NCBI GenBank assembly: GCA_030532405.1 | Contig: JAUNLF010000004.1 | Coordinates: 62,342 to 126,341, forward strand | Length of the DNA stretch: 64,000 nucleotides | Direction of reading: 5' to 3' | Source: Actinomycetaceae bacterium | Lineage (GTDB): Bacteria; Actinomycetota; Actinomycetes; Actinomycetales; Actinomycetaceae | In this document: positions 7,091 through 36,641 of the stretch, in pieces | Numbering within the stretch: the stretch's first letter is position 1 | Layout: every line of letters begins with the position of its first letter | Notes under the pieces: model-generated | Seen by the model: the letters and a program-made list of their open reading frames with translations, nothing else | What the model was told of the DNA's origin: nothing | Databases searched by the model: none | Position numbers and translations under genes: made by a program

Positions 7091-7132
7091 CTTTGGCTCC
7101 TCAGACTCTCAGCTCAGATAAGCGAGTAGTTG

Positions 7133-7420: not shown

Positions 7421-7574
7421 GTTTCCCCACCTCCTCTGGTCTATTCGGTCACGGAACTTCCGTGACAGGAGGGATATGCGATTCGATCCGCGCTTTGCGG
7501 ACCGGCTATCAATGCTACCGCTCCGGGGCGAACTTCTCTACAGTCGTTCAAAAAATTGTGAGCAACTTCAGCGG

Positions 7575-8996: not shown

Positions 8997-9014
8997 TTAA
9001 CCTCCCGGTAACTT

Positions 9015-9298
9015 TCAATCCACAGACTGTGTAAAAGGCTGTGGACAATTTACCCCAAATTTTAGGCAATGCTCGTGGACGACGTTGACACGGCGTCATA
9101 ATAATCCACAAGTTATCCACAGTTTCTACACAATCCACAGCACTTATCCACAGTTTTTGCACAACTTATCAACATTTAGGGTTATGGAATGTTTCAAGTT
9201 GGGGGTACCGTAGCCATGATTGCATTTCGACGCGCGTGCGCGCACACGCGCGTAAGTTATCCACATTTGCACCCAGATGCTGGGGATTTCGTGGATAA
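9015..9298. promoter_or_regulatory. Cluster of ~10 DnaA-box-like 9-mers upstream of dnaB
   Basis: Perfect TTATCCACA boxes lie at 9113-9121, 9144-9152 and 9257-9265. Near-perfect boxes are:
- cAATCCACA at 9016 and 9131
- TaATCCACA at 9102
- TTATCaACA at 9166
- TGTGGACAA at 9040 (reverse of TTGTCCACA)
- CGTGGATAA at 9290 (reverse of TTATCCACg)
- a weak box at 9073
A 24-nt perfect alternating pyrimidine-purine run (9231-9254) lies between the boxes. Confidence 0.6.
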
Positions 9299-9324
9299 GT
9301 GCCGGTTAGTTTCATCCGTTTTCT

Positions 9325-20141: not shown

Positions 20142-21080
20142 GTGAAGCAACTGCAGTCCATATCTATCGTCGTTCCTTGCTACAACGAGGAGGGGTCGCT
20201 GAGGCGCCTGGCCGCCCAGCTGCAAACGAGCCTGGAGTCGGCGGGCTACTCGTGGAATCTGATCCTGGTTGACGACGGGTCGCGCGACGACACCGCGCGG
20301 ATTATCACCGAACTTGCCCAGCAGCACGCCCACATCAAAGGTGTGTTGCTGTCGCGAAACTTCGGTAAAGAATCCGCGATGCTCGCGGGCCTCACCTACG
20401 CGGATGGCGACGCGACGCTCATCATGGATGCGGACATGCAGCACCCTCCGCAGCTGGTGCCGCAGCTCGTTGAAAAAATGGTTGAAACCGGTGCCGACCA
20501 GGTGGTAGCAATCCGCGACCGCGTAGGCGATTCCAGGTTCCGATCCGCCCTCGCACGCCTTTATTACAAGATTGCAAATAGATTAATGGAGGACGTTGAG
20601 CTAATCGATGGGGCTGGCGACTTCCGCCTGCTTTCGCGCCGTGCTGTGGAAACACTGCTGGCGTTGGACGAGCGGCAGCGGTTTTCGAAGGGCTTGTTCT
20701 CTTGGATTGGGTACCCGACAGAGACGATTAGGTACGCGAATCAGGCGTCGAATAGAGAGCGGTCAACGTGGTCGTTTAGTTCGCTACTCGACTACGGGAT
20801 GGACGGCATCATGTCGTTCAACGCGAAGCCCCTCCGAGTTGTCGCAGTCATCGGCGGGATCGGGTTCGCGATAGCGTTTATTTACTTCATCTGGGTACTA
20901 GTGCAGTGGGCGTTGAACGGCGTTGACGCGCCCGGATACATTACGATGATCGCCTCGGTCATCGGATTTGGCGGCATCCAGCTTCTAGCTCTCGGTGTCA
21001 TCGGAGAGTACGTGGGCCGCATATATCGAGAGGTCAAAGCCCGCCCTCATTTTGTCGTCAAAGACGAGCTGGGCTTCTAA
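20142..21080 (+). CDS. Family 2 glycosyltransferase, polyprenyl-phosphate sugar transferase type (GtrB/ArnC/DPM1-like)
   Basis: SIVVPCYNEE, LVDDGSRD and MDADMQH (DXD), plus two C-terminal TM helices. It uses a GTG start. Confidence 0.85.
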   Translation: MKQLQSISIVVPCYNEEGSLRRLAAQLQTSLESAGYSWNLILVDDGSRDDTARIITELAQQHAHIKGVLLSRNFGKESAMLAGLTYADGDATLIMDADMQHPPQLVPQLVEKMVETGADQVVAIRDRVGDSRFRSALARLYYKIANRLMEDVELIDGAGDFRLLSRRAVETLLALDERQRFSKGLFSWIGYPTETIRYANQASNRERSTWSFSSLLDYGMDGIMSFNAKPLRVVAVIGGIGFAIAFIYFIWVLVQWALNGVDAPGYITMIASVIGFGGIQLLALGVIGEYVGRIYREVKARPHFVVKDELGF

Positions 21081-21083
21081 CGC

Positions 21084-21160
21084 CCGCGTTGAACTTCCCA
21101 CTTAACATAACACCTACTTCCCACAGTGTTATGTTGAGTGTTAAGTAAGTGGGAAGTTGG
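21084..21160 (+). repeat. Copy A of ~70-nt hairpin repeat
   Basis: GCGTTGAACTTCCCACTTAACATAACACCTACTTCCCACAGTGTTATGTTGAGTGTTAAGTAAGTGG. The arms are 21100-21113 (ACTTAACATAACAC) and 21126-21139 (GTGTTATGTTGAGT). It starts 4 nt after the GT2 stop and ends 14 nt before the antitoxin stop. Confidence 0.9.
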
Positions 21161-21173
21161 CAAGCGGCGCCGA

Positions 21174-21416
21174 CTACCAAGTAGGCTCGGTGGACGCCTC
21201 TTTTAGTCCAGCTTTTTGACCGTTCTGAACTGACTCGACCATTCCTGGGATCGACTGAAGGTACAGGGTCTCTTGGACTGAGATCCACGTGTCTTCGCTT
21301 ATTAACACCGCATTTTTTCGTTTACCGACTATAACAATAGGGTCATCTACGCCACTGAACCCAGCGATAATTTGCTCCAGATTCACAGCGGCATCCTCGG
21401 CTGTAATAGTCCTCAT
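21174..21416 (-). CDS. Phd/YefM family type II antitoxin (no cognate toxin gene adjacent)
   Basis: MRTITAEDAAVNLEQIIAGF...PIVIVGKRKNAVLISEDTWISVQETLYLQSIPG is the typical YefM/Phd fold sequence. I prefer the start at M11 of the track ORF (21416). Local GC is about 42% by hand count of one 60-nt line. Confidence 0.8.
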   Translation of the reverse strand: MRTITAEDAAVNLEQIIAGFSGVDDPIVIVGKRKNAVLISEDTWISVQETLYLQSIPGMVESVQNGQKAGLKEASTEPTW

Positions 21417-21507
21417 GTCGACAACGTATGCAATAACGAGTCGCACATCAATACCCTCGTGTCTGATCCTTCCATGTGGAGGGCGAAATCCGGATGCGCA
21501 TCGAGCC

Positions 21508-21570
21508 TTAACTTCCCACTTAACATAACACTAACTTCCCACAGTGTTATGTTAAGTGTTATGTTTGGTG
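21508..21570 (+). repeat. Copy B of ~70-nt hairpin repeat (perfect 14-bp stem)
   Basis: TTAACTTCCCACTTAACATAACACTAACTTCCCACAGTGTTATGTTAAGTGTTATG. The arms at 21518-21531 and 21544-21557 are perfectly complementary. It lies in the divergent intergenic region between the antitoxin and the AlbA_2 gene. Confidence 0.9.
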
Positions 21571-21595
21571 TTGAGCTAGGTTAGGCGGGTGCTCA

Positions 21596-23017
21596 ATGGA
21601 TGTTGAAAATATTGTTCTCAATCTAAGGATGCTGGGCAAGGACGACCAGACTGTCGAAGCTAAAGAGGGTGTGGGAAAGTCGATTCTTGAAACTCTTAGC
21701 GCATTTGCCAACAGCGGGGGAGGCATTGTTCTTGTAGGCATATCCGAGTCGCAAGGGTTTCAGATAGTTCCAGGTTTTGACGCCAAGCAGGCGGCTGACC
21801 AAATCCGAGACCGCGGAGAGCAAATCACCCCTCCGGTACGTCCAACCATATCGATCGTGCCTTTTGAAGGTGGCGATCTCGTAGTTGCCGAAGTTGATGG
21901 ATTCCCATCGCAGGATAAACCGGCATACGTTACTAATCGCGGTATGTACGGGGGTAGCTTTCAGCGTGTTGGGGATGCAGATATTAGGTTAACCCAGTAC
22001 GAGGTTGACCGAATGCGTGAAGAACGCACGCAACCTCGTTGGGACGAGCAACCTGTTCCGGGCGCTCGCCTTGCCGATTTGAATTCCGGGATGTTGGAGA
22101 GTTTTGTCGCTAAACAACGGTCTAGCAGACCGAAAACGTTTGCCGATGGAGACACCGTTGCCCTACAGAGGTTGAGGGTGCTTCGTGGTGAGGAGCTAAC
22201 GCTTGCCGCGCTACTTGCTATGGGGGACTACCCGCAGGAGTACTATCCGCGACTTACAGTTGCGTTCTCGGTCTACCCTGGAACATCAAAGGGTGACGTT
22301 ACTACTGGATTTCGCTTCCTGGATCGAAAGACTGTGAGCGGTTCGATTCCAGAAATTGTAGAGACAACTGTAGAACTTGTTTCTAACAATATGCGCTCAG
22401 GTGCTTTGATTGGAGATGTTTTCCGTAAGGAAATACAAGACTATCCCCTGGTGGCTGTCAGAGAAGCGATAGTTAATGCGTTAATGCACCGAGACTATTC
22501 TGAGCAGTCTCAGGGGAGTCAGGTTCAGGTGAACATGTTTGTAGATCGCCTTGAAATCATGAGTCCGGGTGGTCTTTATGGTGGGGTCACGCTGCAAACA
22601 TTGGGGGAGGTAGGGGCTAGTTCAACCCGAAACCAGCGTTTAGCCACATTCCTTGAATCTGTAGAGTTCCCCGGAGGAGGCATAGTTGCTGAAGGTCGTG
22701 GCACAGGACTTGCCGTTATCGGAAAGTCATTGGCAGAAAACCTGCAACCCGAGCCTAGTTTTAGAGCTGATCTAAATAGTTTCACCATTACTTTCTATAG
22801 GCGTCGTGTAGCACCTCAAGAAAAATACGCGACTGCTGAAGATCGTGTCCGGCAGGTGTTTAGCGGAGTCGAATCCGCGTCCACAACCGAACTCGTTAGC
22901 GAAACAGGGCTCAGCCGAACTGCGGTTCAAAAAGCAATCAACAAACTGATCGATGAAGATTTCCTAGAGCCCACAGAGCCGCATAGAAGTCCCAGACAAC
23001 GGTATCGAAGACTGTAA
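21596..23017 (+). CDS. AlbA_2 (Schlafen-like) DNA-binding domain + HATPase_c_4-like domain + C-terminal winged-helix protein
   Basis: N-terminal DQTVEAKEGVGKSILETLSAFANSGGGIVLVGI is the AlbA_2 motif. The central REAIVNALMHRDYS...VDRLEIMSPGGL is a divergent ATPase-like domain. The C-terminal TTELVSETGLSRTAVQKAINKLIDEDFLE is an HTH. Two sample lines counted by hand gave 38-50% GC, against 60-67% in flanking genes. Confidence 0.8.
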   Translation: MDVENIVLNLRMLGKDDQTVEAKEGVGKSILETLSAFANSGGGIVLVGISESQGFQIVPGFDAKQAADQIRDRGEQITPPVRPTISIVPFEGGDLVVAEVDGFPSQDKPAYVTNRGMYGGSFQRVGDADIRLTQYEVDRMREERTQPRWDEQPVPGARLADLNSGMLESFVAKQRSSRPKTFADGDTVALQRLRVLRGEELTLAALLAMGDYPQEYYPRLTVAFSVYPGTSKGDVTTGFRFLDRKTVSGSIPEIVETTVELVSNNMRSGALIGDVFRKEIQDYPLVAVREAIVNALMHRDYSEQSQGSQVQVNMFVDRLEIMSPGGLYGGVTLQTLGEVGASSTRNQRLATFLESVEFPGGGIVAEGRGTGLAVIGKSLAENLQPEPSFRADLNSFTITFYRRRVAPQEKYATAEDRVRQVFSGVESASTTELVSETGLSRTAVQKAINKLIDEDFLEPTEPHRSPRQRYRRL

Positions 23018-23035
23018 ACAGCGGAGTCTACGCGT

Positions 23036-23104
23036 GCGCGTTGAACTTCCCACTGGACATAACACTAGCTTCCCACAGTGTTATGTTAAGTGTTAAGTAA
23101 GTGG
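23036..23104 (+). repeat. Copy C of ~70-nt hairpin repeat
   Basis: GCGCGTTGAACTTCCCACTGGACATAACACTAGCTTCCCACAGTGTTATGTTAAGTGTTAAGTAAGTGG. The arms are 23052-23065 and 23078-23091. By hand alignment it matches copy A at about 62 of 67 positions. It ends about 20 nt before the hydrolase start. Confidence 0.9.
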
Positions 23105-23123
23105 CATGAGGAAGGGTGATCAC

Positions 23124-23891
23124 ATGGGCCAACACGAAGTTGAGTTCGAAGGCGCTCGCGGGCTGAAACTCGCCGGCATCTTGGACACGCCCGAAGGGGC
23201 CGTCAAAACGTGGGCTGTGATCGCGCATTGTTTCACGTGCAACAAATCAGTTCCCGCGGTGTCACGCATTGCAAAGTCGCTGAACAAGCTCGGTATTGGC
23301 GTGCTCCGGTTCGACTTCGCCGGCCTCGGAGCATCCGCTGGAAAGTTCACGGAATCAACATTTTCCGCGGACGTTGAAGACCTAAAAGCGGCTTGTAAAT
23401 GGATGGAGGGCGAAGGCCGAACCCCAAAGCTTTTGATTGGCCATTCGCTCGGCGGCGCGGCGGTGCTCGCAGCCGCGGGAGACATCCCCTCGGTCGTAGC
23501 GGTCGCCACCATTGCGGCGCCCTCCGACCCCGGACACGTTGCGGAACTACTAAAAGACCGACTAGCGCCCGTCTACGAAGCCGGCGTTGCCGAAATCCAA
23601 ATAGCCGGCCACACGATGATGGTGGGGGCGCCCCTATTTGACGACCTGACGAGCCAAAACGAGCATCACGAGCGCATCCGGAACCTGAATGCCGCGCTAC
23701 TGGTGATGCACTCGCCGCAAGACAGGGTGGTAGATATCCACAACGCGATGGATATCTACCGAACCGCTGAAATGCCGAAGAGCTTCATCGCCTTTGACGG
23801 CGCCGATCACCTTATGACAAAAAAGGGCGTCGCAGCGTGGGCGGGCGAAATGATCGCCGCGTGGGCCTCACGCTACGTGAGCGACCTATAA
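23124..23891 (+). CDS. Alpha/beta hydrolase
   Basis: GHSLGG nucleophile elbow and a C-terminal FDGADH. The ATG at 23124 is preceded by AGGAAGGG; the track start at 23106 has no RBS. Confidence 0.75.
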   Translation: MGQHEVEFEGARGLKLAGILDTPEGAVKTWAVIAHCFTCNKSVPAVSRIAKSLNKLGIGVLRFDFAGLGASAGKFTESTFSADVEDLKAACKWMEGEGRTPKLLIGHSLGGAAVLAAAGDIPSVVAVATIAAPSDPGHVAELLKDRLAPVYEAGVAEIQIAGHTMMVGAPLFDDLTSQNEHHERIRNLNAALLVMHSPQDRVVDIHNAMDIYRTAEMPKSFIAFDGADHLMTKKGVAAWAGEMIAAWASRYVSDL

Positions 23892-25292
23892 CCTGCTAGC
23901 CAAAATCTGGTCTGCACTAGCAACAATCGCACTAATCACCTCAGCGTCACCCGCAAGTGAGGGCGCAACAAACTCCAAAACCGCAGCCGCATCCTCCTCA
24001 ACAGACCTACCAACCAGGCCCGTCACACGGTCCGCATACGCGTCCTTCACCGGTGCGCCGTGACCCTGCAGGTGCAACATCCATGCCGCAACCGCCCTCA
24101 CCGCGCCCGCCGGCAGCTCGCCCTCATTACGCAATCGCACGAGTGTAGGCGAAATTCGAACCGGGATCTTCTGCGAACCATCATGCGCGATCTGAGCCAA
24201 CAGGTGACGAATATTCGGGTTCTCGTAGCGTTCAATTAGAGCCTTCGCGTACTCCTCCCACTCAACAGACAACCCAGAACCCGCTTCGGACCACCACTGC
24301 TCGACCCAAGACCGAACAGTCGCATCCGCAATCGCCTCACCAACCGTTTCAAACCCCAGAATCGACCCCGCGTAAGCCATCAGCGAATGCGAACCATTCA
24401 GCATCCACAGTTTGCGTTGCTCAAAAGGTTCAACATCCTCCACAACCTGCGCTCCGGCCGACTCCCAGTCGGGACGACCAGCGGGAAAATCACCAGAAAT
24501 AACCCACTCGCTAAACGGTTCCGTCGGCACCGGGGAAGCGTCCAGGTAGCCCTGCGCGCGTTCGACCTCGTCGCGCTCATCATCAGTCGTCGCGGGCGTA
24601 ATACGATCCACCATGCAGGTCGCCCACGCGACATTGTCGGCCGCCCACTCCAAAATTGACGAGTCCACTGCCTTTGCCGCATCCTTAACGACCCTCGAAA
24701 ACGCGGAACCATTATCCGGAATGTTGTCGCACGGCAACACCGTCAACTTCGTCGCTCCAGAAATCCTACGAGCAAGCAACCCCGCCAAAATGCGCGCCGG
24801 CGCAGTCGACACCCGCAACGACTTCACATCATCAACGCTGTAGTCACCGCCCTCCACCAGGCCCTTCAACGCAGCGAGGTCGCTAGCAACGTCCTCATTT
24901 TCAACATCCAACGACCCATCATCGCGCCGGCAGTAGCCCGCCTCGGTGACGGTCGAAGTTACCACCGCCAAATCCTCGGATGTGAAGTACTCGATTAACT
25001 GTGCAAAATCGGACGCGGGGTGGACGCGCGAAAGTGAAGAAATGACCTCGAATGAATCACCCTCATTACCCTTCGTAACAAGCGTGTACAGGCCATCTTG
25101 CGGTTCGAGTAGTTCCGCCATCGTTGGGCGCCGCCCCGTAAATGCTGCAATCCCCCAGTCGTTCGCGTCGCTAGCGTGCTCGGTGTACCACGCCTGGTGC
25201 GCGCGAGTGAAGTTCCCCAAACCTATGTGCACCATCTTGATAGGTGCGGCGGGACGGCCGTGCGATTCACGCGTTAACTTAGGTGCGCTCAT
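23886..25292 (-). CDS. Mannitol dehydrogenase family oxidoreductase, fructuronate reductase (UxuB)-like
   Basis: MVHIGLGNFTRAHQAWYT and VTSTVTEAGY resemble the E. coli UxuB motifs (IVHLGCGAFHRAHQA, SLTVTEKGY; from memory). It overlaps the uxaC stop by 4 nt. Confidence 0.75.
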   Translation of the reverse strand: MSAPKLTRESHGRPAAPIKMVHIGLGNFTRAHQAWYTEHASDANDWGIAAFTGRRPTMAELLEPQDGLYTLVTKGNEGDSFEVISSLSRVHPASDFAQLIEYFTSEDLAVVTSTVTEAGYCRRDDGSLDVENEDVASDLAALKGLVEGGDYSVDDVKSLRVSTAPARILAGLLARRISGATKLTVLPCDNIPDNGSAFSRVVKDAAKAVDSSILEWAADNVAWATCMVDRITPATTDDERDEVERAQGYLDASPVPTEPFSEWVISGDFPAGRPDWESAGAQVVEDVEPFEQRKLWMLNGSHSLMAYAGSILGFETVGEAIADATVRSWVEQWWSEAGSGLSVEWEEYAKALIERYENPNIRHLLAQIAHDGSQKIPVRISPTLVRLRNEGELPAGAVRAVAAWMLHLQGHGAPVKDAYADRVTGLVGRSVEEDAAAVLEFVAPSLAGDAEVISAIVASADQILASRL

Positions 25293-26710
25293 AGTTTGAA
25301 TACCTTTCGCGGCTGAGTGGTTACAAGATCGACGGCAACTTCCAAAGCTTCATCCATCTGCAGGCGGTGCTCCGCGACAAGCGATCCAAGGAACGCTGAA
25401 TCTACGCGGCGTGACACGTCGTGACGGGCCGGAATGGAACAGTACGCGCGAGTGTCATCAATGAACCCGCTCGTCTTGTAAAACCCTGCGTAACCCGTAA
25501 CCGCGCGCCGGTACCGCATGATCGCATCGGCTTCATCGATAAACCACCAGGGAGCGCCCACGTAAAGGCCACGATAGTAGCCTGCCAGCGGCGCTAGCTC
25601 GCGTGAATACGTGGTTTCGTCAATCGTGAAAACAACCAGTTGGAAGTTGTCGTGGTTGCCGTACTCCGCGAGGATTGGCTGCAACGCCCTCGAAAATTCA
25701 ACTGAATGAGGCACGTCGCCGCCCACATCCGCACCGTATTTCGCAAAAGCGTGCGGGTCGTGATTTCGAACCACCGCGGGATGCATTGTCATTACGAGGC
25801 CGTCTTCAACCGCTAGGCGCGCCTGGTCGTTTACCATGTGCCTGCGCAAAGCATCGCCCTCCGCAACAGAAATTTCCCCCTTGAGGGCGGACTTGTACAG
25901 GCGCTCCGCTTCAGTGTCGCTAAGGCGTTCGCAACGCGCGTCCGCGTGAGAGTGGTCTGTTGAAACCGCGCCGCGCTCCTTGAAGTAGAGGCGGCGAGTG
26001 CGCATGGCTTCTAAGTGCCCCTTGTAACTGGAGACATCAACGTCCGCCACTTCGCCTAACTTGTGTGTCAGGTCCACCCAGCCTTCACGGGCGGGCTCCA
26101 AGTACTTGTCGGGGCGGAACGTGGGCATGACGCGGCCGTCCCAGTCGGGATCATCCGCTAGCTGCTGGTGCTTCGCCAAGTCGTCGCAAGGGTCGTCCGT
26201 AGTCGCAAGGGCTTCGATGTTGAACCGCTTGTAAAGCGCTCGTGGACGATACTCCGGCTGTTCAATGCACACTTGAATTTGGTCGTAAATCTGGTCGGCG
26301 GTTTCCGCAGAAGGGCGGACTTTAACTCCGAACACGTCGTGGAACTCCGACTCGAACCAGAACTGCACGGGCGTTCCGCGCAGGTACTTCCAGTTCTCGC
26401 ACAGCAGTCGAAAAGCTGCCCTTGACTGCTCTTCGGAAATCTTAGAGCCCACCGGAACACCCAGATCAGCCAGTTCTACTCCCGCGGCTCCGTGCAACAT
26501 CCGGTTCGTGTAATGATCCGGGGTTAAAAGTAGCGATGTGGGGTCGGAAAATGGAATGTCGTCGGCTATCCACTCGACGGGCACATGCCCGTGCGGAGAG
26601 ATAATCGGCAGATCCTTCACGGCTTCGTAAAGCTCGCGGGTAATATCTCGAGTCTTCGGGTCGGCCGGAAATAGCCGATCGGGGTGCGGGTTCAAGGGCT
26701 TTGGAGACAT
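25289..26710 (-). CDS. uxaC: Glucuronate isomerase
   Basis: 473 aa. The N-terminus DRLFPADPKTRDITRELYEAVKDLPIISPHGH is the UxaC hallmark. Confidence 0.88.
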   Translation of the reverse strand: MSPKPLNPHPDRLFPADPKTRDITRELYEAVKDLPIISPHGHVPVEWIADDIPFSDPTSLLLTPDHYTNRMLHGAAGVELADLGVPVGSKISEEQSRAAFRLLCENWKYLRGTPVQFWFESEFHDVFGVKVRPSAETADQIYDQIQVCIEQPEYRPRALYKRFNIEALATTDDPCDDLAKHQQLADDPDWDGRVMPTFRPDKYLEPAREGWVDLTHKLGEVADVDVSSYKGHLEAMRTRRLYFKERGAVSTDHSHADARCERLSDTEAERLYKSALKGEISVAEGDALRRHMVNDQARLAVEDGLVMTMHPAVVRNHDPHAFAKYGADVGGDVPHSVEFSRALQPILAEYGNHDNFQLVVFTIDETTYSRELAPLAGYYRGLYVGAPWWFIDEADAIMRYRRAVTGYAGFYKTSGFIDDTRAYCSIPARHDVSRRVDSAFLGSLVAEHRLQMDEALEVAVDLVTTQPRKVFKL

Positions 26711-26741
26711 AAATTACTCGCTTTCGACAATGAAATCGGGG

Positions 26742-27767
26742 TCAGAACTTAGGGTGTGCGGGTCCAACGCTCTCTCGAAGTACGAGTTTCATTGGAACCA
26801 CTTGCGTTTCAGCCACAGGCGTACTCCTGTGACGCAGTTGCGATATAAGGGTTCTCGCTGCGCGGGCACCTATCTTTGCTGAAGGTGGACCAATCGACGA
26901 CAGCGATGGTGTTGTGAAAAAGGAGGCTACCGAGTTATCAAATCCGATCACTGAAACTGCTTCAGGAACCTCAAAACCACGCGTTTGCACGGCCTTAATA
27001 AACCCGATAGCAATCACGTCGTTGTAGCAAACCACAGCCGACGTTGGGCTTTGCAGCCATGCTTTCGCGCCTCTAACACCGCCTTCCAGCGTGGGACTGT
27101 TAGGTCCCACCCTGCGCAGGTGCAGACCAAACTGTTCGCAAGATTTAGCTAGCGCCCTCCATCGCATGCCGTCCGCCCACGACGCTGCGGGGCCGGACAG
27201 GTACGTTACGCGTTGGTGGCCCAGGTCGCGTAAGTGTTCAACGGCTTCGTGAACCGCCTGGTCGGTGTCTGGAACAATGGAGGGGATACCGACGGCGTGA
27301 CGATTTACCGCCACTACCGGTTTAACCTTCTTGATTTGGTTGATGGACGAGTCGCTCATCCTCGATGACGTCAAAACGATTCCGTCAACCAGGTGGAGGA
27401 CTCGCTCGATAGCGCTGCGTTCCTGCTGGTCGTCCTCTTGCGAATCGATAAGCAGTACGGTGTAGCCGTTCTTGGTTGCTTCGATTTGAAAGCCGCGCAT
27501 TGTTTGAGCGAACACGGGGTTTGAAATGTCGGCCACTACGAACGCTAATACGTTAGTGTCTTCCCCCAGGTCCGCACTGGTCACAGGTTTAGTGCGGTAC
27601 CCGAGTTCGGCCGCAATCTCTCGGATTCGCTGCCCGGTTTGCGCGTTGACGCGTCCGGGTCTTGAAAACGCTCGAGAAACCGTGGAGGGAGCTACGCCCG
27701 CAACCTTCGCAACATCGTAAATGGTGATGCGTTTGGGTTGCTTTGGATTTTCTTCAGCAGAAGTCAC
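26742..27767 (-). CDS. LacI family transcriptional regulator
   Basis: HTH ITIYDVAKVAGVAPSTVSRAFS followed by a periplasmic-binding-protein-like core. Its GTG start overlaps the larC stop (GTGA). Confidence 0.85.
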   Translation of the reverse strand: MTSAEENPKQPKRITIYDVAKVAGVAPSTVSRAFSRPGRVNAQTGQRIREIAAELGYRTKPVTSADLGEDTNVLAFVVADISNPVFAQTMRGFQIEATKNGYTVLLIDSQEDDQQERSAIERVLHLVDGIVLTSSRMSDSSINQIKKVKPVVAVNRHAVGIPSIVPDTDQAVHEAVEHLRDLGHQRVTYLSGPAASWADGMRWRALAKSCEQFGLHLRRVGPNSPTLEGGVRGAKAWLQSPTSAVVCYNDVIAIGFIKAVQTRGFEVPEAVSVIGFDNSVASFFTTPSLSSIGPPSAKIGARAARTLISQLRHRSTPVAETQVVPMKLVLRESVGPAHPKF

Positions 27768-29239
27768 GGTCGCTCACCTTCGCCCCCATGTCCAGGCCAG
27801 TTCGCACCCGAATACAGGCCACTTTCCGCGGCTGCGCACTGGGCGCGTGCCAGCGCAACGCGCTGTGGAACTGCGAGTACTTCAGCGAGCTTTTCGACGT
27901 CCACAAACTCTGCGGTTGCCTGCAGAATCTGGGTTTGCTCCCGGTTTGCTGAAATCTTTATGCGCACCGGATGGCCTTCTACCTGAACTGTTTGCCATTC
28001 GCGTTTGAGGACGCGGCGGTGTGCAGGTGCGGAAACTCTGGCTCCGATCGTCGACGTGTGATTCAAAAGCGCGTCAATCACCGCGTTTACGCTGTCTGCC
28101 TTGGCAAGGGCGCTGCACACGTGTGCGGGTCGCCCTTTTTTCATGATGACGGGAGTTAGCCACGCATCGAGGGCGCCGGCCTCCATCAGCTGGTCGATCA
28201 CCGCCGGCCACACTCGCGGGTCCAGGTCGTCAACATTGGCGTCAACTTGGACAACCGTGTCGGAACCGGTGAACTGCGGCTCGGTGGGCTGCGTAGCACC
28301 CGTATCCGGTGAGGCGGGGCTTCCCACTACTGCGCGGAGGATCCCTGCCCTGTCTTGTCGCACTCGACTTCCCGCTCCGAAACCGACAGTGTCCAGCTTC
28401 ATCGCTGGCATTGATCCGACTTTTGAACAGATCGCACGAATCAGGGTCATGCCGGTGGGGGTGCAAAGTTCTCCCACATCCTGTGGCCCACCCGCTTCGA
28501 TTTCCCACCCGCGCGAAAGCTCAACCACGGCGGGAGGGGGCACCGTTAAAGTGCCGTGCATAGTTTGGATCGTCCCGGCACCCACTGCGACCTTTGAGGA
28601 TGTCGCTTCACCGACCCGCAGCGTGCGAATCGCCTCGCAAACGCCAACAATGTCGCCAATAGAATCTAAAGCGCCTACTTCGTGGAAGTGGACAGATTCA
28701 ACACTTGCCCCGTGAACCTTAGCTTCTGCAACGGCGAGACGAGTAAACGCTTCAACCGCTAGTTCCCGCGTGAAACCAGGAACGTCCTCGTGGTCGAGCA
28801 TTGCTTTAATGTCGGAAAGGTGACGGGCCGGCGGATTAGGTTCGTCAGCAATTACGTCAATTTTGAGGGCGGAGAAGGCTCCGCGTTGGACTCGGCGTTG
28901 CTGCAAGTGAAGCTTGCCGGGGGCAATGATCTGCAGGACTCGTGCAACCGACCGGGCATCGGCGCCGGCATCGATGAGGGCGGCCAGGAGCATGTCGCCC
29001 GAAGCCCCCTCGGTGGCATCAATCCACAGTATGTTCTGGCTTTGTCCTTCGGGGGCTTGCCACAGATCGCCCGGCTCTATCGGCTCACCGGCCGGAACCT
29101 CATCCCCGTCCGCAGTGTGCACGTGCGGGTGGTGGTGGGTGTGCCCGTGCTCGTGCTTGCCGTGGCCGTGGGCATGTGGGTGCGCATGGTCGCCGTGGCT
29201 GTGGTGGTGCCCGGAAGGGCCGGTGGGAATATCATGCAT
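27764..29239 (-). CDS. larC: Nickel insertion protein LarC (single unsplit ORF) with His-rich N-terminus
   Basis: DUF111-type motif ILWIDATEGASGDMLLAALIDAG. The N-terminal tract is GHHHSHGDHAHPHAHGHGKHEHGHTHHHPHVH. I prefer the start at MHDIPTG (29239), which overlaps the larB stop by 8 nt. The track start at 29347 lies inside larB. Confidence 0.8.
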   Translation of the reverse strand: MHDIPTGPSGHHHSHGDHAHPHAHGHGKHEHGHTHHHPHVHTADGDEVPAGEPIEPGDLWQAPEGQSQNILWIDATEGASGDMLLAALIDAGADARSVARVLQIIAPGKLHLQQRRVQRGAFSALKIDVIADEPNPPARHLSDIKAMLDHEDVPGFTRELAVEAFTRLAVAEAKVHGASVESVHFHEVGALDSIGDIVGVCEAIRTLRVGEATSSKVAVGAGTIQTMHGTLTVPPPAVVELSRGWEIEAGGPQDVGELCTPTGMTLIRAICSKVGSMPAMKLDTVGFGAGSRVRQDRAGILRAVVGSPASPDTGATQPTEPQFTGSDTVVQVDANVDDLDPRVWPAVIDQLMEAGALDAWLTPVIMKKGRPAHVCSALAKADSVNAVIDALLNHTSTIGARVSAPAHRRVLKREWQTVQVEGHPVRIKISANREQTQILQATAEFVDVEKLAEVLAVPQRVALARAQCAAAESGLYSGANWPGHGGEGERP

Positions 29240-29948
29240 GGTCGTCCTCCTCGACGATGTCATTGCGAGTCGTGCGCGATCCGGTGGCGGCGATCTGGGC
29301 GGCCAAATGTCCAGCGCCGTAACCGTTGTCAATGTTGACAACTCCAACTCCGGGTGCGCATGCGTTTAACATTCCAAGTAGCGCGGCAACGCCACCAAAA
29401 GCGGCTCCATAACCAACTGAAGTTGGCACGGCGACGACGGGGCACGCAACTAATCCCGCAACGACCGATGCCAGTGCGCCTTCCATGCCCGCAACAACGA
29501 CGATCACGTCAGCTGACTCCAGCACATCTCGCCGCGACAGGATTCGATCCAATCCGGCCACGCCAACATCGACCAGTTCAACAACTTCGCGGCCCAAATA
29601 GCGTGCGGTCAAAGCGGCCTCCCGCGCGATCGGAACATCAGAAGTTCCCGCGCACGCGACGACTACGCGTCCTCCGCTAGGCTGGGGTGGTTGCGCTGGC
29701 CAGGCCAACAAGCGCGCGGTTTCGTCATACAGCGCGTCTGGCAGGACATCCAAAACGGCACGCGCATGCTCCGCGTTAGCCCGCGTAAAAAGTGCGCATC
29801 CAAGCTCGCCCTCACCGGCGTTAAAACGCTGCTTCCAAAGGCGCGCAATGTCGCGAACTTGCGATGCAGATTTGCCTTCGCAATAGATTGCCTCGGGGTA
29901 GCCGCGTCGCGCGAAACGCCCAAAGTCCAGGTTCGCGTCACTCATCAT
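29232..29948 (-). CDS. larB: Nickel pincer cofactor biosynthesis protein LarB (PurE-like carboxylase/hydrolase)
   Basis: The PurE-like core has VVVACAGTSDVPIAREA and VVVAGMEGALASVVAG. It lies between larE and larC. Confidence 0.8.
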   Translation of the reverse strand: MMSDANLDFGRFARRGYPEAIYCEGKSASQVRDIARLWKQRFNAGEGELGCALFTRANAEHARAVLDVLPDALYDETARLLAWPAQPPQPSGGRVVVACAGTSDVPIAREAALTARYLGREVVELVDVGVAGLDRILSRRDVLESADVIVVVAGMEGALASVVAGLVACPVVAVPTSVGYGAAFGGVAALLGMLNACAPGVGVVNIDNGYGAGHLAAQIAATGSRTTRNDIVEEDDHA

Positions 29949-30906
29949 GACCTCGCGTCGTTTTACCCGCGTTCAAAATCGACAAAGTGAACGCGCCGGA
30001 CCTAATCCCTTCCAGGTCAAGCGTCACGTGCTTGAATCCCGCGGCCTTAATTTCGTTCACGAGGGCGGACTTGCGATGCTGATCCAAAAGCAGGTCAAAC
30101 TCTTCGGTGGGAACCTCGACTCGGGCGAGGTCCCCGTGATGTCGAACCCTGCAGTCGCTAAAGCCCGCGCGCAGCACGGCGTCTTCCGCGAGGTCAATCA
30201 TCTTGAGCTTCTGTGCCGTCACCGCCTGGCCGTGCGGAATACGACTAGCCAGGCACGGAGCGGCCGGCTTATCCGCGCTTATCAGGCCAAAAGCCCGCGC
30301 AATGCTACGCACGTCCGCCTTAGTAGCCGACGCAGTCGCAAGCGGATAGAGCACACCGTGCTCACGCGCCGCCCTCCCGCCCGGCCTATCAATACGGGCG
30401 GCGTCATCGAGGTTCTCACCGTAAACCACAGGGCCAACACGGTGAGCATCCAGCACGCCCTCATCGAAACGGTTATAAAGTTCGTCTTTGCAAAAATAGC
30501 AACGATTCACGGGATTGCTAGCGTAGTTCGGATTCTCAAGCTCGCGGGTAACGACCTCGACAACTGCAAGGTCAAGCTGCTTCGCCTGGCGCAGTGCGAA
30601 CGATTTTTCGCGGCGAGCAAGGGACGCGGAATCGCCCAGTAGTAAGACGGTGCGCTCACGGCCTACGGCTCGCGCCACCAGGGTTGCAAGGACGGAAGAG
30701 TCCACGCCTCCCGAATATGAAACCCCTACTCTAAGATCCGTCGCGGCGTTTTCCGACTCGTCGAGTGCCGTCGTAATCTGGGCTGCAACCGCGTCTGCAA
30801 TCTTAGAAAGCTGCGCGGGCAAGTCTTGAAGCAGGTCGACCGCAGGAGCGTGAGTTAACGCGCTACTTAGGAGCATAAAATCACGCCTTGGTTCGGTCGA
30901 CGGCAA
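29938..30906 (-). CDS. larE: ATP-dependent sacrificial sulfur transferase LarE (PP-loop ATPase)
   Basis: PP-loop VSYSGGVDSSVLA and a conserved Cys in AAPCLASRIP. The start is either 30906 (overlapping larA) or the ATG at 30876, which lies 4 nt after the larA stop and is preceded by AAGG. Confidence 0.8.
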   Translation of the reverse strand: MPSTEPRRDFMLLSSALTHAPAVDLLQDLPAQLSKIADAVAAQITTALDESENAATDLRVGVSYSGGVDSSVLATLVARAVGRERTVLLLGDSASLARREKSFALRQAKQLDLAVVEVVTRELENPNYASNPVNRCYFCKDELYNRFDEGVLDAHRVGPVVYGENLDDAARIDRPGGRAAREHGVLYPLATASATKADVRSIARAFGLISADKPAAPCLASRIPHGQAVTAQKLKMIDLAEDAVLRAGFSDCRVRHHGDLARVEVPTEEFDLLLDQHRKSALVNEIKAAGFKHVTLDLEGIRSGAFTLSILNAGKTTRGHDE

Positions 30907-32182
30907 GCCGGTGTAGTAGTTCGCCAGCTTGGGGGACGATCAGCGTGTCCGGATCGTTTTGGAGCTGATCAAAATCCACATCCGCCGGATCCATATAAAC
31001 AAGGTTCACCGCTTCGACTTGTTCGCGTGGGATGGAGGTAGCCAAAATCACCTTGACCCGGTTTGATTCGACGCCCTCCTGCTCGTCGTACTCACCCATT
31101 CCGCGCAGGTGCGTAGAGTGGGCGAGTTCGCCCCACGGATGGTCCTTGAACTTGTCCCACTGTTTAACGAAGTAGTCGCGGCTGTGGTAGCCGATCTTCA
31201 TGAGACCGGGGTGCATGTGCGACACTTCGGTAATGTGCGGGGCGTACAGGATCAACTCGCCACCGTCTGCAACGACGGGTTCGAGTTTGTAAAAGCCTTT
31301 TGCCGCAGTCCAGATGTCTTCATACATTGTGGGCATGATCGAGACAACGCGCTTGTACGCCTTGTCAACGTACTTAACGTGAACGTCTGCCGACACGTTA
31401 GCGCACGCTTCCCACGACGATTTGGAGTCGCCAAACGACACGAACTGAAGGTCTAAACTGCCGGGTTTCACAATCATTCCGAGCAGCAGTTTTTGCGATG
31501 GTACCAGGTCTGCAGCCGCGTCAATCATCTGGCGAACCGGCGTGATGCCGCGCGCGCCAATCATTTCGTAACTGGTGATCAATGCGCCCACCCAGTGCGA
31601 CATGTCGATCACGTCATGACCGGACAGGCCCGGAAATAGGTACTTGTTGCCACCGGAAATGCCGACCACTTCGTGGGGGAGTACCGGCCCTAAAATCAGC
31701 GTGATGTCCGTGTCCACCACCATTTTGTTAACGAGGACGGTCATCGCCCGGTCCGTCAGGCGTCCGCCCGACAGTTCACTAATCCGTTCTTTCGGAATCG
31801 TGCCCAGGTTGGCGAAAGTTTCCTCTTCACGCCACGCGTGGTTGTAAATTTTCCAGCCGGGGTATTCGGATTCAAACTCGCCGGGCTTATTTCCCATGAG
31901 TTTTCCGATTGCTTCATCGGACATGTCATCGTGCGTGCCAAGCGCGATCACAACCCGCACGTCGCGCGGCCTGTCGCCCAGCGCCTCATAAACGTAGTGC
32001 GCCATCTTGTCTACGGGAGCGTGCCTTGTCCCATCGGGAACTACAAGAGTTACGCGTTTGCCGTCAAAATCGAAATTTCCTAATTGTTCGAGGACGAACG
32101 CGCGAATCTGTTCATCGGTCAGCACAACGTCCGCGCCGCCGACACTGGCGGCTTCCGGAAGCCCTGGATATAGATCAGTCAT
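30881..32182 (-). CDS. LarA-family nickel-pincer-dependent 2-hydroxyacid racemase/epimerase (substrate unknown)
   Basis: LVVPDGTRHAP and PHEVVGISGGNKYLFPG...SHW fit the LarA H...GxSGGxK...H pattern for the catalytic His, the NPN-tethering Lys and the Ni-binding His (pattern from memory). I prefer the start MTDLYPG at 32182, because an 11-bp GC hairpin (32243-32270) would otherwise lie inside the track ORF (start 32293). Confidence 0.75.
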   Translation of the reverse strand: MTDLYPGLPEAASVGGADVVLTDEQIRAFVLEQLGNFDFDGKRVTLVVPDGTRHAPVDKMAHYVYEALGDRPRDVRVVIALGTHDDMSDEAIGKLMGNKPGEFESEYPGWKIYNHAWREEETFANLGTIPKERISELSGGRLTDRAMTVLVNKMVVDTDITLILGPVLPHEVVGISGGNKYLFPGLSGHDVIDMSHWVGALITSYEMIGARGITPVRQMIDAAADLVPSQKLLLGMIVKPGSLDLQFVSFGDSKSSWEACANVSADVHVKYVDKAYKRVVSIMPTMYEDIWTAAKGFYKLEPVVADGGELILYAPHITEVSHMHPGLMKIGYHSRDYFVKQWDKFKDHPWGELAHSTHLRGMGEYDEQEGVESNRVKVILATSIPREQVEAVNLVYMDPADVDFDQLQNDPDTLIVPQAGELLHRLAVDRTKA

Positions 32183-32242
32183 ATCTTTACTGTGACCCCA
32201 ATCTCTGGTTACTGCAACAAGTTGCCACTTTTTACCGTAAGA

Positions 32243-32270
32243 GGGCCGAGCAGATTTTTCTGCTCGGCCC
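32243..32270 (-). terminator. Stem-loop between the PfkB kinase and the larA-like gene (possible internal terminator/attenuator)
   Basis: GGGCCGAGCAG / CTGCTCGGCCC form an 11-bp perfect stem with a 6-nt AT loop. There is no clear U-tract on the minus strand. Confidence 0.35.
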
Positions 32271-32370
32271 AATTCCTGATGTTTTGCAAGCACGCCCTCG
32301 AAAATCGGAATCTACGCGGGCGACCGCATTTTAAGTTGAAGGATTTACCAAAAGGGATGAAGCGGCTACC

Positions 32371-33444
32371 TCAGCGTTGGACGCGGGCGTTGCCCTCCCA
32401 GATTGACCAAACCTGCGCTTCGTCGGCGGGCGAACCGTAATCGTTAACCGACGTTGCTGCCAGTGCGCCGGTTGCCCAACCAAACTGCATGCACTTCTCG
32501 GCCGGCCAGCCCTTCAGGATGCCGTAAAGCACGCCACCAATCGAACCGTCGCCACCGCCGATACGATCAATCACCTGAATATCGCGCAGGCTTCCGACGT
32601 AGAAGTCGTCATCGCCCCACAGGATCATGCCCCACTTGTGGTGGTTGGCATTAACAACTTCACGCAGCGACGTTCCAATGTACTGGGCCTTCGGATAAGC
32701 CTCCCGGATTCGGCCAATCATTTCCTTAAAAGCACCGATTTCCGCGTCGATATCTTCGCCCCCGGCCTCCGGCCCTTTAATGCCAAGGCAGAGCTGGAAG
32801 TCCTCTTCGTTGCCGTACAAAATGTCGCAGTGCGTGGCAATGTCGTGGAAAGCTTCGGACAGCTCGTCCTCGCGGCCCTTCCAAAACGATGCACGGTAGT
32901 TCAAATCGAACGAAACCATCGTGCCGTTTTCCTTAGCAACGCGGGCGATCTGAACGCAGAACTTAGATGTTTGCGGAGACAGTGCCGCAACGAGTCCGGA
33001 CAGGTGGAGGATCTTCACGCCCTCGTCCTTGAACAGCTTGTCCAAGTCGAAGTCGTCCACGTCTAGCGTCAAACCGACTTCCCCGGCGCGGTCGTTCCAC
33101 ACGCGCGGTGCGCGACCTCCGAACCCAGAATCTGCAATGTTGAACTGGTGGCGGAATCCCCACGCGTCACCCTGCGGTTTGTCCGGGCCTTCAAACGCCA
33201 TCCCGCGGGCACGCAAGTCAGCCTTAATGAAAGCCGAAATGGGTGATCCTTCAACAAAGTTTGTGAGAACCTTCGTCGGCATTCCCAAGTGGGACGCAAC
33301 CGACGCTACGTTAGTTTCAGCCGAGGTGGCCTGCATGTAGTAGCGGTTCGAGGTGTGTACGGGCTGGCGGTTTTCTGGCGTAATGCGCACGCCGATCGAA
33401 GTGGGAACAACCATTGCCCACTTTGCGTCTTCACGTAGCTGCAT
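32371..33444 (-). CDS. PfkB family sugar(-acid) kinase, KdgK-like
   Basis: PfkB signature DRIGGGDGSIGG near the C-terminus, within a ribokinase-like layout. The start MQLRED at 33444 lies 4 nt after the gnd stop. The track start at 33537 overlaps gnd. Confidence 0.75.
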   Translation of the reverse strand: MQLREDAKWAMVVPTSIGVRITPENRQPVHTSNRYYMQATSAETNVASVASHLGMPTKVLTNFVEGSPISAFIKADLRARGMAFEGPDKPQGDAWGFRHQFNIADSGFGGRAPRVWNDRAGEVGLTLDVDDFDLDKLFKDEGVKILHLSGLVAALSPQTSKFCVQIARVAKENGTMVSFDLNYRASFWKGREDELSEAFHDIATHCDILYGNEEDFQLCLGIKGPEAGGEDIDAEIGAFKEMIGRIREAYPKAQYIGTSLREVVNANHHKWGMILWGDDDFYVGSLRDIQVIDRIGGGDGSIGGVLYGILKGWPAEKCMQFGWATGALAATSVNDYGSPADEAQVWSIWEGNARVQR

Positions 33445-33448
33445 TTTC

Positions 33449-34903
33449 TTAGGCCTCAACTTCCGGGCGGCCCTCTTGCGCCCACATAGTGTGGAAGGTG
33501 CCGTCCTTGTCGATCCGCTTGTAGGTGTGTGCGCCAAAGAAGTCGCGCTGGCCCTGAATCAGGGCGGCCGGCAGGCGCTCTGCGCGAACCCCGTCGTAGT
33601 AGGCCAGTGAGGACGAGAACACGGGGGTTGCAACCCCGTGCAACGCCGCCATCGACACCAGGCGACGCCAGTGCGGCAGTGCGCCAACGATCTTGTCGTA
33701 GAAGAAGTCATCCGCAATGAGCAGCGGCAGCTCGGCGTTCTTCTCGTAAGCCTTGGTGATGTCGTTTAGGAAGCGCGCGCGAATAATGCAGCCGCCCCTC
33801 CAAATCCGCGCCATGTCACCCAGCTTGATGTCCCAGTTGTATTCTTCGGCGGCAGCTTGAATCTCGTTGAAGCCCTGCGAGTATGCCACAATCTTCGACG
33901 CGTAAAGGGCCTGGCGGACGTCCTCGATGAACCCTTCACGATCCTCGATGTTCCAGTCCTCGGCCTTACCTTCAAAACCGCGAGCGGCTTCGCGCTGCTT
34001 CGGGGAGGACGACAGGCCGCGAGCAAACGTTGCCTCACCAATGCCGGTCACCGGCACGCCTAGCGACAGTGCGGTCTGAGTGGTCCAAGCGCCCGTGCCC
34101 TTCTGGCCCGCGGCGTCCACGATTAGGTCAACCAGCGGTTTACCCGTCTTGGCATCAACCTGGCGCAAAACTTCAACCGAAATCTCCATGAGGTACGAGT
34201 CCAGTTCGCCCTCGTTCCAACGTGCGAAAATGTCCGCAATCTCGGTGGGCTTCAAGCCCAGAGCCCGGCGCAGCAGGTCGTAGGCTTCGCCGATAACCTG
34301 CATGTCCGCGTACTCGATGCCGTTGTGGACCATCTTCACAAAGTGGCCCGCGCCGTCCTCACCAACGTGCGTGCAGCACGGCTCGCCGTCCACCTTCGCG
34401 GAAATCTTCTCTAGCATCGGGCCCAGACGGTCGTAGGATTCTTTAGATCCGCCCGGCATGATCGACGGGCCCCACAGGGCGCCCTCTTCACCACCGGAAA
34501 CGCCGCAGCCAACGAAGTGCAACCCGCGTTCGCTCATTTCGCGTTCGCGGCGAATCGTGTCGGTAAACAGCGAGTTGCCAGCGTCGACGATGATGTCGCC
34601 TTCGTCCATGCGTTCGGCGAGTTGTTCAATAACCGCGTCGGTTGCCGCACCGGCTTTCACCATGATGATCGCGCAACGTGGCGGCGTCAGCGCGGCCACG
34701 AAGTCGTCGATTGATTCTGCCGCGATGAACTGTGCTTCTTCGCCGTACTTGTCCATTACGGCTTCAGTCTTTGCGGAGGTCCGGTTGTGGATTGCCACAC
34801 GGTAACCGTTTCGCGCGAAGTTTCGGGCCAGATTACTGCCCATCACGCCCATGCCGGTTACGCCAATATCTGCAGATGCAGCCGCCGGGGTCTCGAGGGT
34901 CAT
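33449..34903 (-). CDS. gnd: 6-phosphogluconate dehydrogenase, decarboxylating
   Basis: IGVTGMGVMGSNLARNF Rossmann motif, GEDGAGHFVKMVHNGIEYADMQ, and a length of 484 aa. Confidence 0.9.
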   Translation of the reverse strand: MTLETPAAASADIGVTGMGVMGSNLARNFARNGYRVAIHNRTSAKTEAVMDKYGEEAQFIAAESIDDFVAALTPPRCAIIMVKAGAATDAVIEQLAERMDEGDIIVDAGNSLFTDTIRREREMSERGLHFVGCGVSGGEEGALWGPSIMPGGSKESYDRLGPMLEKISAKVDGEPCCTHVGEDGAGHFVKMVHNGIEYADMQVIGEAYDLLRRALGLKPTEIADIFARWNEGELDSYLMEISVEVLRQVDAKTGKPLVDLIVDAAGQKGTGAWTTQTALSLGVPVTGIGEATFARGLSSSPKQREAARGFEGKAEDWNIEDREGFIEDVRQALYASKIVAYSQGFNEIQAAAEEYNWDIKLGDMARIWRGGCIIRARFLNDITKAYEKNAELPLLIADDFFYDKIVGALPHWRRLVSMAALHGVATPVFSSSLAYYDGVRAERLPAALIQGQRDFFGAHTYKRIDKDGTFHTMWAQEGRPEVEA

Positions 34904-35129
34904 TACTACTCCTTCAATGTCGCCTATCTACAGAGTGGTACATAACACGCCTCGCGACAACCAGTTGCCATCATTTGCGCCGATCGTGCCACAAAGCAGA
35001 CTAATCGCGTGTTTTCTCAATAACCATACACGAGGGCGCCCCTGCTACGCGCTGCGAATACGGCGGTGGTGCCGGCTTGTTTGGGGTGTTTTTGCGCGTG
35101 AGGGCGTGCGGGTTTCCGCCCGGTGTTGC

Positions 35130-36518: not shown

Positions 36519-36641
36519 AGCCACTCCTTCGTGAAAAAGTCGCTCCCAGTGTAAAACCGAAGACGCGCACTTCTTGAACACCGGTGTGGCCGTGCTTGAC
36601 TCGACCCCCGCGAGGCCCGGTAACTCCCCGATTGTGGGCGG

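Follow-up and report, generated by a model that had tools for sequence, protein, structure and literature searches.

What is the role of a roughly 70-nt repeat whose three copies divide a low-GC block of about 2.0 kb in the genome of Actinomycetaceae bacterium (GenBank assembly GCA_030532405.1)? We analyzed a 64,000-nt stretch of contig JAUNLF010000004.1 (positions 62,342 to 126,341, hereafter the window), in which copies A, B, and C separate four genes in the order GT2 glycosyltransferase, Phd/YefM antitoxin, a Schlafen-type gene (AlbA_2, HATPase_c_4, and winged helix-turn-helix [wHTH] domains), and alpha/beta hydrolase. An earlier note on this DNA had described XerD-arm-like hairpins that delimit two single-gene cassettes. 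We consider it probable (about 0.7), from comparison of related sequences, that the repeats form the ends and supply the promoter of a horizontally mobile single-gene module whose cargo is the Schlafen gene, a candidate defense gene. Copy B is the upstream end of this module and copy C its downstream end, and copy A is a third, C-type copy that encloses the Phd gene. The features that carry this reading are listed below; F and H are two types of repeat unit, primes mark reverse units, and the slash marks the center of a copy.

21085-21158, forward strand: copy A (F H F / H' h' F'), three forward and three reverse units, with a right half of the "downstream" type like that of C
21503-21570, forward strand: copy B (F H F / H' H'), upstream end of the Schlafen module, ending 25 nt before the start codon
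21596-23017, forward strand: gene for a 473-aa protein with AlbA_2 (Schlafen), HATPase_c_4 (GHKL), and C-terminal wHTH domains (Pfam)
23037-23104, forward strand: copy C (F H F / H' h', then a truncated third unit), downstream end of the module, starting 20 nt past the stop codon

A repeat search of the window placed the three copies in one direct repeat family, all in the same orientation, as the earlier note had it. The aligned spans are 21085-21152 for A, 21503-21570 for B, and 23037-23104 for C, with identities to A of 79% for B and 91% (62 of 68 positions) for C. The three are the only copies in the 64 kb and all lie at this locus; GTGTTATGTTAAGT or its complement occurs seven times with up to two mismatches, always inside a copy, where chance would give 0.09 occurrences. 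The description of the 14-nt arms was also borne out: they pair perfectly in B (21518-21531 with 21544-21557), with one mismatch in A and two in C, and the 12-nt loop between them repeats ACTTCCCAC, the motif that precedes the left arm. Each copy is an array of units, a composite palindrome, and not one designed hairpin. The units, 10-12 bp in length, fall into two types, F (AACTTCCCAC) and H (AACATAACAC), which have the pattern C.T..CAC in common and agree at 7 of 10 positions. In each copy, two to four forward units stand opposite two or three reverse units (GTGGGAAGTT or GTGTTATGTT) across a center of 1-2 nt; the 14-nt arms are the H/H' pair, and the loop is the innermost F unit.

We searched for relatives of the element with an exact 18-mer from its center in 185,579 species genomes (one per species), which gave 13 loci, and with a 21-mer in metagenome contigs, which gave 12. 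Of these, three genome loci appear to be chance matches, and one metagenome locus is too short for a verdict. The real genome matches come from Corynebacterium spp., Gulosibacter hominis, Actinomycetaceae metagenome-assembled genomes (MAGs), and two MAGs labeled Bacillota, and each matched species genome has one or two exact-core matches, never more. By tblastn, a Schlafen homolog (55-87% identity) adjoins the element at 7 of the 10 real loci from genomes and at 8 of the 12 from metagenomes; the remaining loci hold solo copies or have the element too close to the end of the retrieved DNA. A protein-first search, which is free of the DNA seed bias, found the same bracketing in C. diphtheriae, Vaginimicrobium propionicum, Pseudoglutamicibacter albus, Schaalia sp., and an uncultured relative. 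The bracketing repeat is present in about 20 other genomes, and the Schlafen orthologs that it brackets (54-87% amino acid identity) occur in Corynebacterium, Schaalia, Gulosibacter, Pseudoglutamicibacter, Vaginimicrobium, and several MAGs.

The layout of these loci is regular. Two bracketing copies were found in the window and at loci L005, L010, L012, L013, L021-L024, L029, L037, L038, L039, and L057, and the L025/L026 contig carries two copies in separately retrieved pieces. The upstream copy stops 14-25 nt short of the start codon, and the downstream copy follows the stop codon at a distance of 0-41 nt; L057 is the exception, with a downstream gap of 384 nt, extra DNA that lies inside the module. 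Unit arrays are present at every related locus. The upstream-type right half of B (H' H') recurs in L010 and L057, at other genomic sites, and copy C and the downstream copy of L010 are 91% identical. In each genus, the cassettes have unrelated housekeeping genes as neighbors. At the sampled loci, the element is shown to be tied strictly to this Schlafen family.

Some related loci depart from this layout. In Corynebacterium sp. LK2522 (L012, 3736-5218), the bracketed Schlafen gene is a pseudogene, split into two open reading frames by a frameshift or stop, and both copies are kept. L007 (1480-1542) is the only locus at which the center of the element is inverted relative to the gene, with no downstream copy detected within the locus. 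In Arachnia rubra (CP072384, L033), a different direct repeat of about 56 nt (~3849-3904 and ~5468-5522; 98% identity, with internal hairpin potential) brackets a decayed element and the Schlafen gene, and there is no downstream F/H copy.

Comparison of loci locates the boundaries of the module. Gulosibacter (L005, Microbacteriaceae) and Pseudoglutamicibacter (L038/L024, Micrococcaceae) share 84-85% nucleotide identity only over L005 3169-4788. The limits of this span are exactly the first unit of the upstream copy and the last unit of the downstream one, and the sequences that flank it are unrelated. Alleles empty of the element were found twice. One is in MAG JAUNLN01 (L055), where the upstream gene order is that of the window and the GT2 and hydrolase genes are 38 nt apart. 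The other is in C. pseudotuberculosis (L040), where trhO and a convergent 157-aa gene overlap by 4 nt; at the trhO site of C. diphtheriae (L029), 1.67 kb consists of a partial array, an element, the gene, and an element. Solo-copy alleles were also found twice: Corynebacterium HMSC04H06 (L003) has one copy where LK2522 (L012) and L021 have element, gene, and element (flanks 96% identical), and L018/L019 compare in the same way with L013/L022/L023 (flanks ~90% identical). Each solo copy consists of the left part of an upstream copy and the right part of a downstream copy, and therefore matches the expected product of recombination between direct repeats. The cassette polymorphism looked for in related genomes was thus found for the Schlafen module, in the form of occupied, solo-copy, and empty sites. 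These comparisons support the earlier idea of cassette boundaries for the Schlafen gene (B to C), with the repeats as limits of horizontally acquired, variably present DNA.

In the window, the whole 2.0-kb block is an insertion between the glycosyltransferase and hydrolase genes, which are adjacent in a related genome.

20142-21080: GT2 glycosyltransferase gene, upstream neighbor of the block
21081-21084, unstranded: left edge of the block, directly 3' of the GT2 stop codon (in L055, the GT2-hydrolase spacing is 38 nt, without the element)
23106-23891: alpha/beta hydrolase gene, downstream neighbor of the block

The block (21081-23105) has a GC content of 49.9%, compared with 58.5% for the window and 58-60% in the 10 kb on either side, and it ranks lowest among 310 windows of the same size in the 64-kb stretch. 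The low GC reported previously is real, and the values then given (38-50% against 60-67%) overstate the contrast. JAUNLN01, whose GT2-hydrolase site is empty, carries the cassette on another contig (L010) with a Schlafen protein 87% identical to that of the window. The different location, the empty site, and the low GC argue that the window's cassette was acquired separately.

The repeats may also serve in expression of the cargo. GTGTTATGTT includes TGTTATGTT, which matches the extended -10 consensus TGnTAnnnT, and copy B carries two such motifs.

21545-21553 and 21557-21565, forward strand: two predicted extended -10 motifs (TGTTATGTT) within the H' units of B, facing the Schlafen gene

An H' unit is retained upstream of the gene in all lineages, the decayed Arachnia copy included. 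A promoter role of H' would account for the near-invariance of H' to the right of the center. It would also account for the difference in Schaalia between the upstream (H' H') and downstream (F' F') copies, and for what is left in Arachnia rubra, where only a decayed upstream copy is present and its gene-adjacent H' F' part survives. We infer that the reverse H units (GTGTTATGTT) would provide an extended -10 promoter for the Schlafen gene.

The earlier note regarded the element as a hairpin. All copies can indeed fold as single-stranded DNA (z-scores of -2.9 to -9.5; -18.2 kcal/mol and z = -5.6 for copy A), and in some lineages near-perfect 22-bp stems form in an offset register with the inner F unit as the loop. 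Across 25 copies, however, pairing was 84% in the offset register compared with 82% in shuffles, and 78% compared with 77% in the symmetric register. Double changes were in weak excess in the offset register (21 vs 13) and in no excess in the symmetric register. Because F and H share 7 of 10 positions, any inverted array pairs, and the folds are largely a by-product of inverted arrays. We therefore rejected a hairpin kept by covariation as the main constraint. With pairing so close to that of shuffles, the conserved feature is the half-site array, which points to protein binding. Mean nucleotide identity between lineages is 80% for the element and 64% for the gene; selection evidently acts on the non-coding element, which is better conserved than the gene.

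These observations can be joined in one mechanism. The units would be protein-binding half-sites, and the most economical binder would be the wHTH domain of the module's own protein, since this protein is the sole constant partner of the array. Recombination between the two direct copies would loop out the gene and leave one solo copy, and insertion would require a trans-acting factor that recognizes the arrays. The earlier note found no recombinase in the window; likewise, we obtained no Pfam match to a recombinase or transposase, tyrosine recombinases included, in the 47 window open reading frames of at least 150 aa. Neither type of gene was present within 3-5 kb in seven gene-called contexts of related loci.

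Several results weigh against the mobile module, some of them against single parts of it. A simple unit of B, gene, and C does not account for copy A and the Phd gene. The DNA scans required an F/H' center and so biased the sample, and the centers at protein-found loci do vary (AT in C. diphtheriae; T with GTGGGATG in Schaalia). As for transfer, the window and JAUNLN01 are 66% and 70% identical in the flanking GT2 and hydrolase proteins and 86% and 90% in the next two upstream genes, and protein identity by itself therefore fails to distinguish the cassette from the backbone. No target-site duplication was seen at the C. diphtheriae, Gulosibacter, or Pseudoglutamicibacter junctions, and no conserved 4-5-nt target lies beside the left end among 11 loci. 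A sigma-70 scan, which requires a -35 box, predicted no promoter in the copies, and the promoter role leaves unexplained why downstream copies carry H' units too. The wHTH region, proposed as the binder, shows moderate conservation (0.67) and does not exceed the rest of the protein (0.68-0.74). Finally, 12 of 13 distant homologs in the plasmid collection (23-30% identity) lie in BREX or restriction-modification operons without such repeats; the link between repeat and gene is therefore clade-specific, and we dropped flanking repeats as a universal feature of the superfamily.

The closest of the 13, a stand-alone homolog in Acetoanaerobium noterae (NZ_CP154629, L042; 30% identity), itself lies between two copies (1154-1281 and 2989-3113) of an unrelated direct repeat, palindromic and about 105 nt long, which is made of 17-nt sub-repeats and occurs at nine places in the 2.6-Mb record. 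We counted this repeat pair in favor of the module reading, as a possible parallel in another phylum. The plasmid collection gave no DNA match to the element (best protein relative, 30%), viral contigs gave no exact core match, and phage records held distant homologs only, at up to 36% identity. Among these is gp31 of Mycobacterium phage Squirty (NC_026588, 26117-27457; 24% identity), annotated as a "RecG-like DNA helicase". Gordonia phage records match too, and human-gut phage contigs match at 30-36% identity. Two plasmids have other repeats beside distant homologs. In Streptococcus dysgalactiae NZ_CP044103 (L043, 2866-3075), about 21 tandem copies of TAGGATACAG lie between a Schlafen-GHKL homolog and a DEAD/DEAH helicase gene. 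In a Chlorohelix plasmid (L044, 1187-1247 and 1271-1331), two 61-nt repeats with the palindrome TGTCTGTATATACAGACA lie between parB and the homolog and may be a centromere or operator.

We weighed the mobile module against several alternatives. The copies could be purely regulatory palindromes, with an operator or promoter upstream, a terminator or insulator downstream, and gain and loss of the gene by generic recombination. Copies that closely abut the start and stop codons, an H' unit that holds an extended -10 motif, the capacity of every copy to fold, and the retention of only the promoter-proximal part in Arachnia all agree with such a role. We think it unlikely, because independent transfers show homology that ends exactly at the outer copy ends, solo copies persist without any gene, and a promoter and a terminator need not be the same 65-bp direct sequence. 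The hairpins, moreover, barely exceed shuffles in pairing and lack a T-tract: there is no T-run after A, B, or C, and a terminator scan found no intrinsic terminator at the copies. The Xer machinery is another alternative. The XerD-arm likeness noted earlier holds, as TTATGTTAAGT matches 10 of 11 positions of the E. coli XerD arm, 10 of 11 of an actinobacterial arm, that of Frankia alni (PMC3025954), and 11 of 11 of the predicted Rhodoferax ferrireducens dif arm (PMC2731167). In the window, XerD-arm-like 11-mers occur inside the copies only. Host XerC and XerD might then bind the H' units and integrate or excise a circle of the gene plus one element, in the manner of pdif modules and integrative mobile elements exploiting Xer (IMEX), and the unit's conservation across families, like that of Xer arms, the lack of a recombinase gene in cis, and solo copies that resemble precise recombination products would fit. 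We nevertheless find membership in such a system decidedly unlikely. A full dif-like 11-6-11 site was rejected (XerC arm, 3-6 of 11; 6-bp center, 0-2 of 6), the best 28-mer matches F. alni dif at 13-14 of 28 positions, which is window background, and the spacing of the inverted XerD-like arms is 18 nt where 6 would be expected. The center varies by lineage (A, AT, or T), the inner right unit in Schaalia is not H', the copies are direct and lie at ordinary intergenic loci, and both copies arrive together at previously element-free sites.

A non-autonomous transposable element mobilized in trans, either a miniature inverted-repeat transposable element (MITE) with multi-unit terminal inverted repeats or an IS200/IS605-type single-stranded mover, would account for the outer units of the two copies as terminal inverted repeats (AACTTCCCAC ... 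GTGGGAAGTT), for solo copies, and for the absence of a transposase in cis. Direct hairpin copies at both ends without target duplication were indeed found here, as in IS200/IS605-type palindrome-associated transposable elements (PATE). This origin is very unlikely in our judgment, given the very low copy number, an element almost always tied to one gene family, a left end without a conserved 4-5-nt target, stems of about 22 bp with 12-nt loops unlike known IS200/IS605 ends, and the lack of a candidate transposase in the loci examined. We rejected dispersed repeats of the repetitive extragenic palindromic (REP), bacterial interspersed mosaic element (BIME), or MITE kind on copy number: the 64-kb window has three copies, and none of the 185,579 species genomes has more than two exact-core matches. 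By this count, the copies are unlikely to be the ubiquitous REP or terminator that might have undone the cassette idea. Least credible, to the point of being far-fetched, is a cluster of integron attC sites without an integrase, recombined by an IntI-type enzyme. ACTTAAC and GTTAAGT/GTTGAGT/GTTAGGT do fit the R'' (RYYYAAC) and R' (GTTRRRY) boxes, as noted earlier, and imperfect palindromes bound single genes. The box match is unspecific, however, because every unit junction fits, and it is the only attC feature that matches: the R''-R' hairpin is a continuous stem structure of about 40 nt without the characteristic bulges, below the 57-141 nt range of attC hairpins, and intI and attI are absent from the window and the gene-called related loci. 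To our knowledge, integrons are essentially absent from Actinobacteria. A bolder idea is that a single defense gene between two direct, palindromic arrays of 12-bp half-sites, with no dedicated recombinase in cis, represents a previously unrecognized kind of cassette. Its insertion and excision might be the work of a co-opted host tyrosine recombinase that acts on XerD-arm-like units arranged otherwise than in dif, or of the Schlafen-GHKL-wHTH protein, bound to its own ends. We hold this to be rather unlikely; if it were true, the unrelated clostridial repeat pair would be an independent second instance.

Returning to the mobile Schlafen module as the preferred reading, we examined its cargo. 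The encoded protein passes the Pfam cutoffs for PF04326 (E = 2e-15) and PF13749 (E = 6e-22). Its C-terminal MarR_2 match (E = 5e-4, 20.7 bits) is below the Pfam cutoff of 27 bits, and the helix-turn-helix call rests on this weak match together with the MarR_2 and related helix-turn-helix families recorded for many homologs. Motifs of the E.K and GHKL kinds are conserved, with E21.K23 and HRDY...PGG kept across 117 homologs. There are 378 homologs at E ≤ 1e-20, and the named ones among the best 120 (at least 54% identity) all belong to Actinomycetota genera, MAG bins apart. Many protein-database homologs come from contigs of cassette length (about 1.5-1.9 kb). PADLOC gave only partial matches, to pAgo-associated proteins, and the matches of the protein in the PDB were two uncharacterized structures. 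The architecture is that of the "pSlfn HisKinase-HTH" class, the second commonest prokaryotic Schlafen class at 19.2% (PMC13056530). The cargo is a candidate anti-phage tRNA nuclease of the prokaryotic Schlafen type.

The second interval of the block contains the antitoxin gene.

21174-21446, reverse strand: orphan Phd/YefM antitoxin gene (Pfam PF02604, E = 2e-7)

Since the Pfam match begins at residue 11, the likely start is the ATG at 21416. The gene is divergent from the Schlafen gene, and there is no space for a toxin gene between it and copy A. The two single-gene cassettes claimed in the earlier note hold as a description, in that the copies delimit the Phd and Schlafen genes; the evidence for an independent cassette does not extend to the Phd interval (A to B). 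Among related loci we found no other element-Phd-element unit, and no Phd homolog stands beside another cassette locus except for a truncated fragment in Vaginimicrobium. This fragment (V. propionicum, L037, 4539-4661) is a 5'-truncated Phd/YefM pseudogene directly 3' of the downstream copy, 58% identical in amino acid sequence to residues 27-67 of the window's Phd and followed by a RelB/PemK pair; two genera thus have Phd next to the element. Copy A, a C-type copy, has seven extra left-flank bases in common with C, which suggests a duplication event. At L029, in C. diphtheriae, a partial third array (F ... H h; 3844-3893) lies 40 nt upstream of the upstream copy and recalls copy A. A short-read assembly of the organism from the window (Logan SRR24915805, L014/L027) breaks exactly at copy A.

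The surroundings of the block were also surveyed. A cluster of cca, class A penicillin-binding protein, ssb, and dnaB genes at 1194-10677, a set typical of DNA near the origin in actinobacteria, makes the origin-proximal position proposed earlier plausible. Rfam at gathering thresholds and a tRNA scan gave no match in the window. A second large indel lies beside the cassette: between the hydrolase gene and the malic-enzyme/CitMHS genes, a block of about 17 kb (23886-41462) carries genes for mannitol dehydrogenase, UxaC, LacI, LarC/LarB/Lar_N, PfkB, 6PGD, radical SAM, GntR, and TauE proteins, and in its place related MAGs L055 and L056 have a single unknown gene (573 or 484 aa).

A repeat-bracketed, recombinase-less mobile defense module of this kind would be widespread in Actinomycetota and has apparently not been described before; exact-sequence literature searches found no paper with the element sequences, and a keyword search returned nothing relevant. 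How single defense genes move without integrases or transposases is poorly understood, and here a defense-type gene crosses actinobacterial families, including human-associated Corynebacterium, Schaalia, and Actinomyces relatives. The conserved, precise boundaries and the natural occupied, solo, and empty alleles make the mechanism of mobility directly testable in tractable hosts, for example C. diphtheriae or C. glutamicum. In practice, the repeat can also serve as a marker for finding such modules, and short-read assemblies break at it. Should the wHTH protein bind the arrays, they would be the first DNA ligand for the HisKinase-HTH class of prokaryotic Schlafens.

Several known systems share part of this organization. 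Like pdif modules and IMEX, the module is small, has no recombinase of its own, and has short conserved sites, with one half-site that is a near-perfect XerD arm. In contrast to those systems, in which pdif sites are inverted and IMEX lie at chromosomal dif, the copies here are direct, the loci are chromosomal and intergenic, away from dif, the sites are arrays of 4-7 half-site units, and the cargo is always of the same gene family. Integron cassettes, which can carry defense genes too, resemble the module in their single genes, imperfect palindromes, and 7-mer boxes. They differ in having an integrase and attI, longer palindromes with extrahelical bases, and one shared attC where the module has two full copies per gene and a predicted promoter of its own. 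REPIN/RAYT pairs, IS200/IS605-derived elements, and Correia elements likewise involve palindromic repeats that flank a single-copy gene, hairpin-capable ends, and no target duplication. Correia elements can carry a promoter, as the element here may. Unlike in REPIN/RAYT systems, the flanked gene encodes a Schlafen-GHKL-wHTH protein and not a HUH transposase, and the element is present in one to three copies per genome and is not dispersed. The solo copies at L003 and L018 are comparable to solo long terminal repeats, which arise when recombination between direct repeats deletes the interior and leaves one repeat, although here neither reverse transcription nor an integrase is involved and palindromic arrays of 50-75 bp make up the repeats. 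The closest likeness in cargo is to the pSlfn HisKinase-HTH proteins. The study that defined them demonstrated phage defense in E. coli for other Schlafen architectures and does not mention flanking repeats or mobility (PMC13056530), which are the features seen here, around a gene that has exactly the HisKinase-HTH domain architecture and a conserved catalytic E.K motif.

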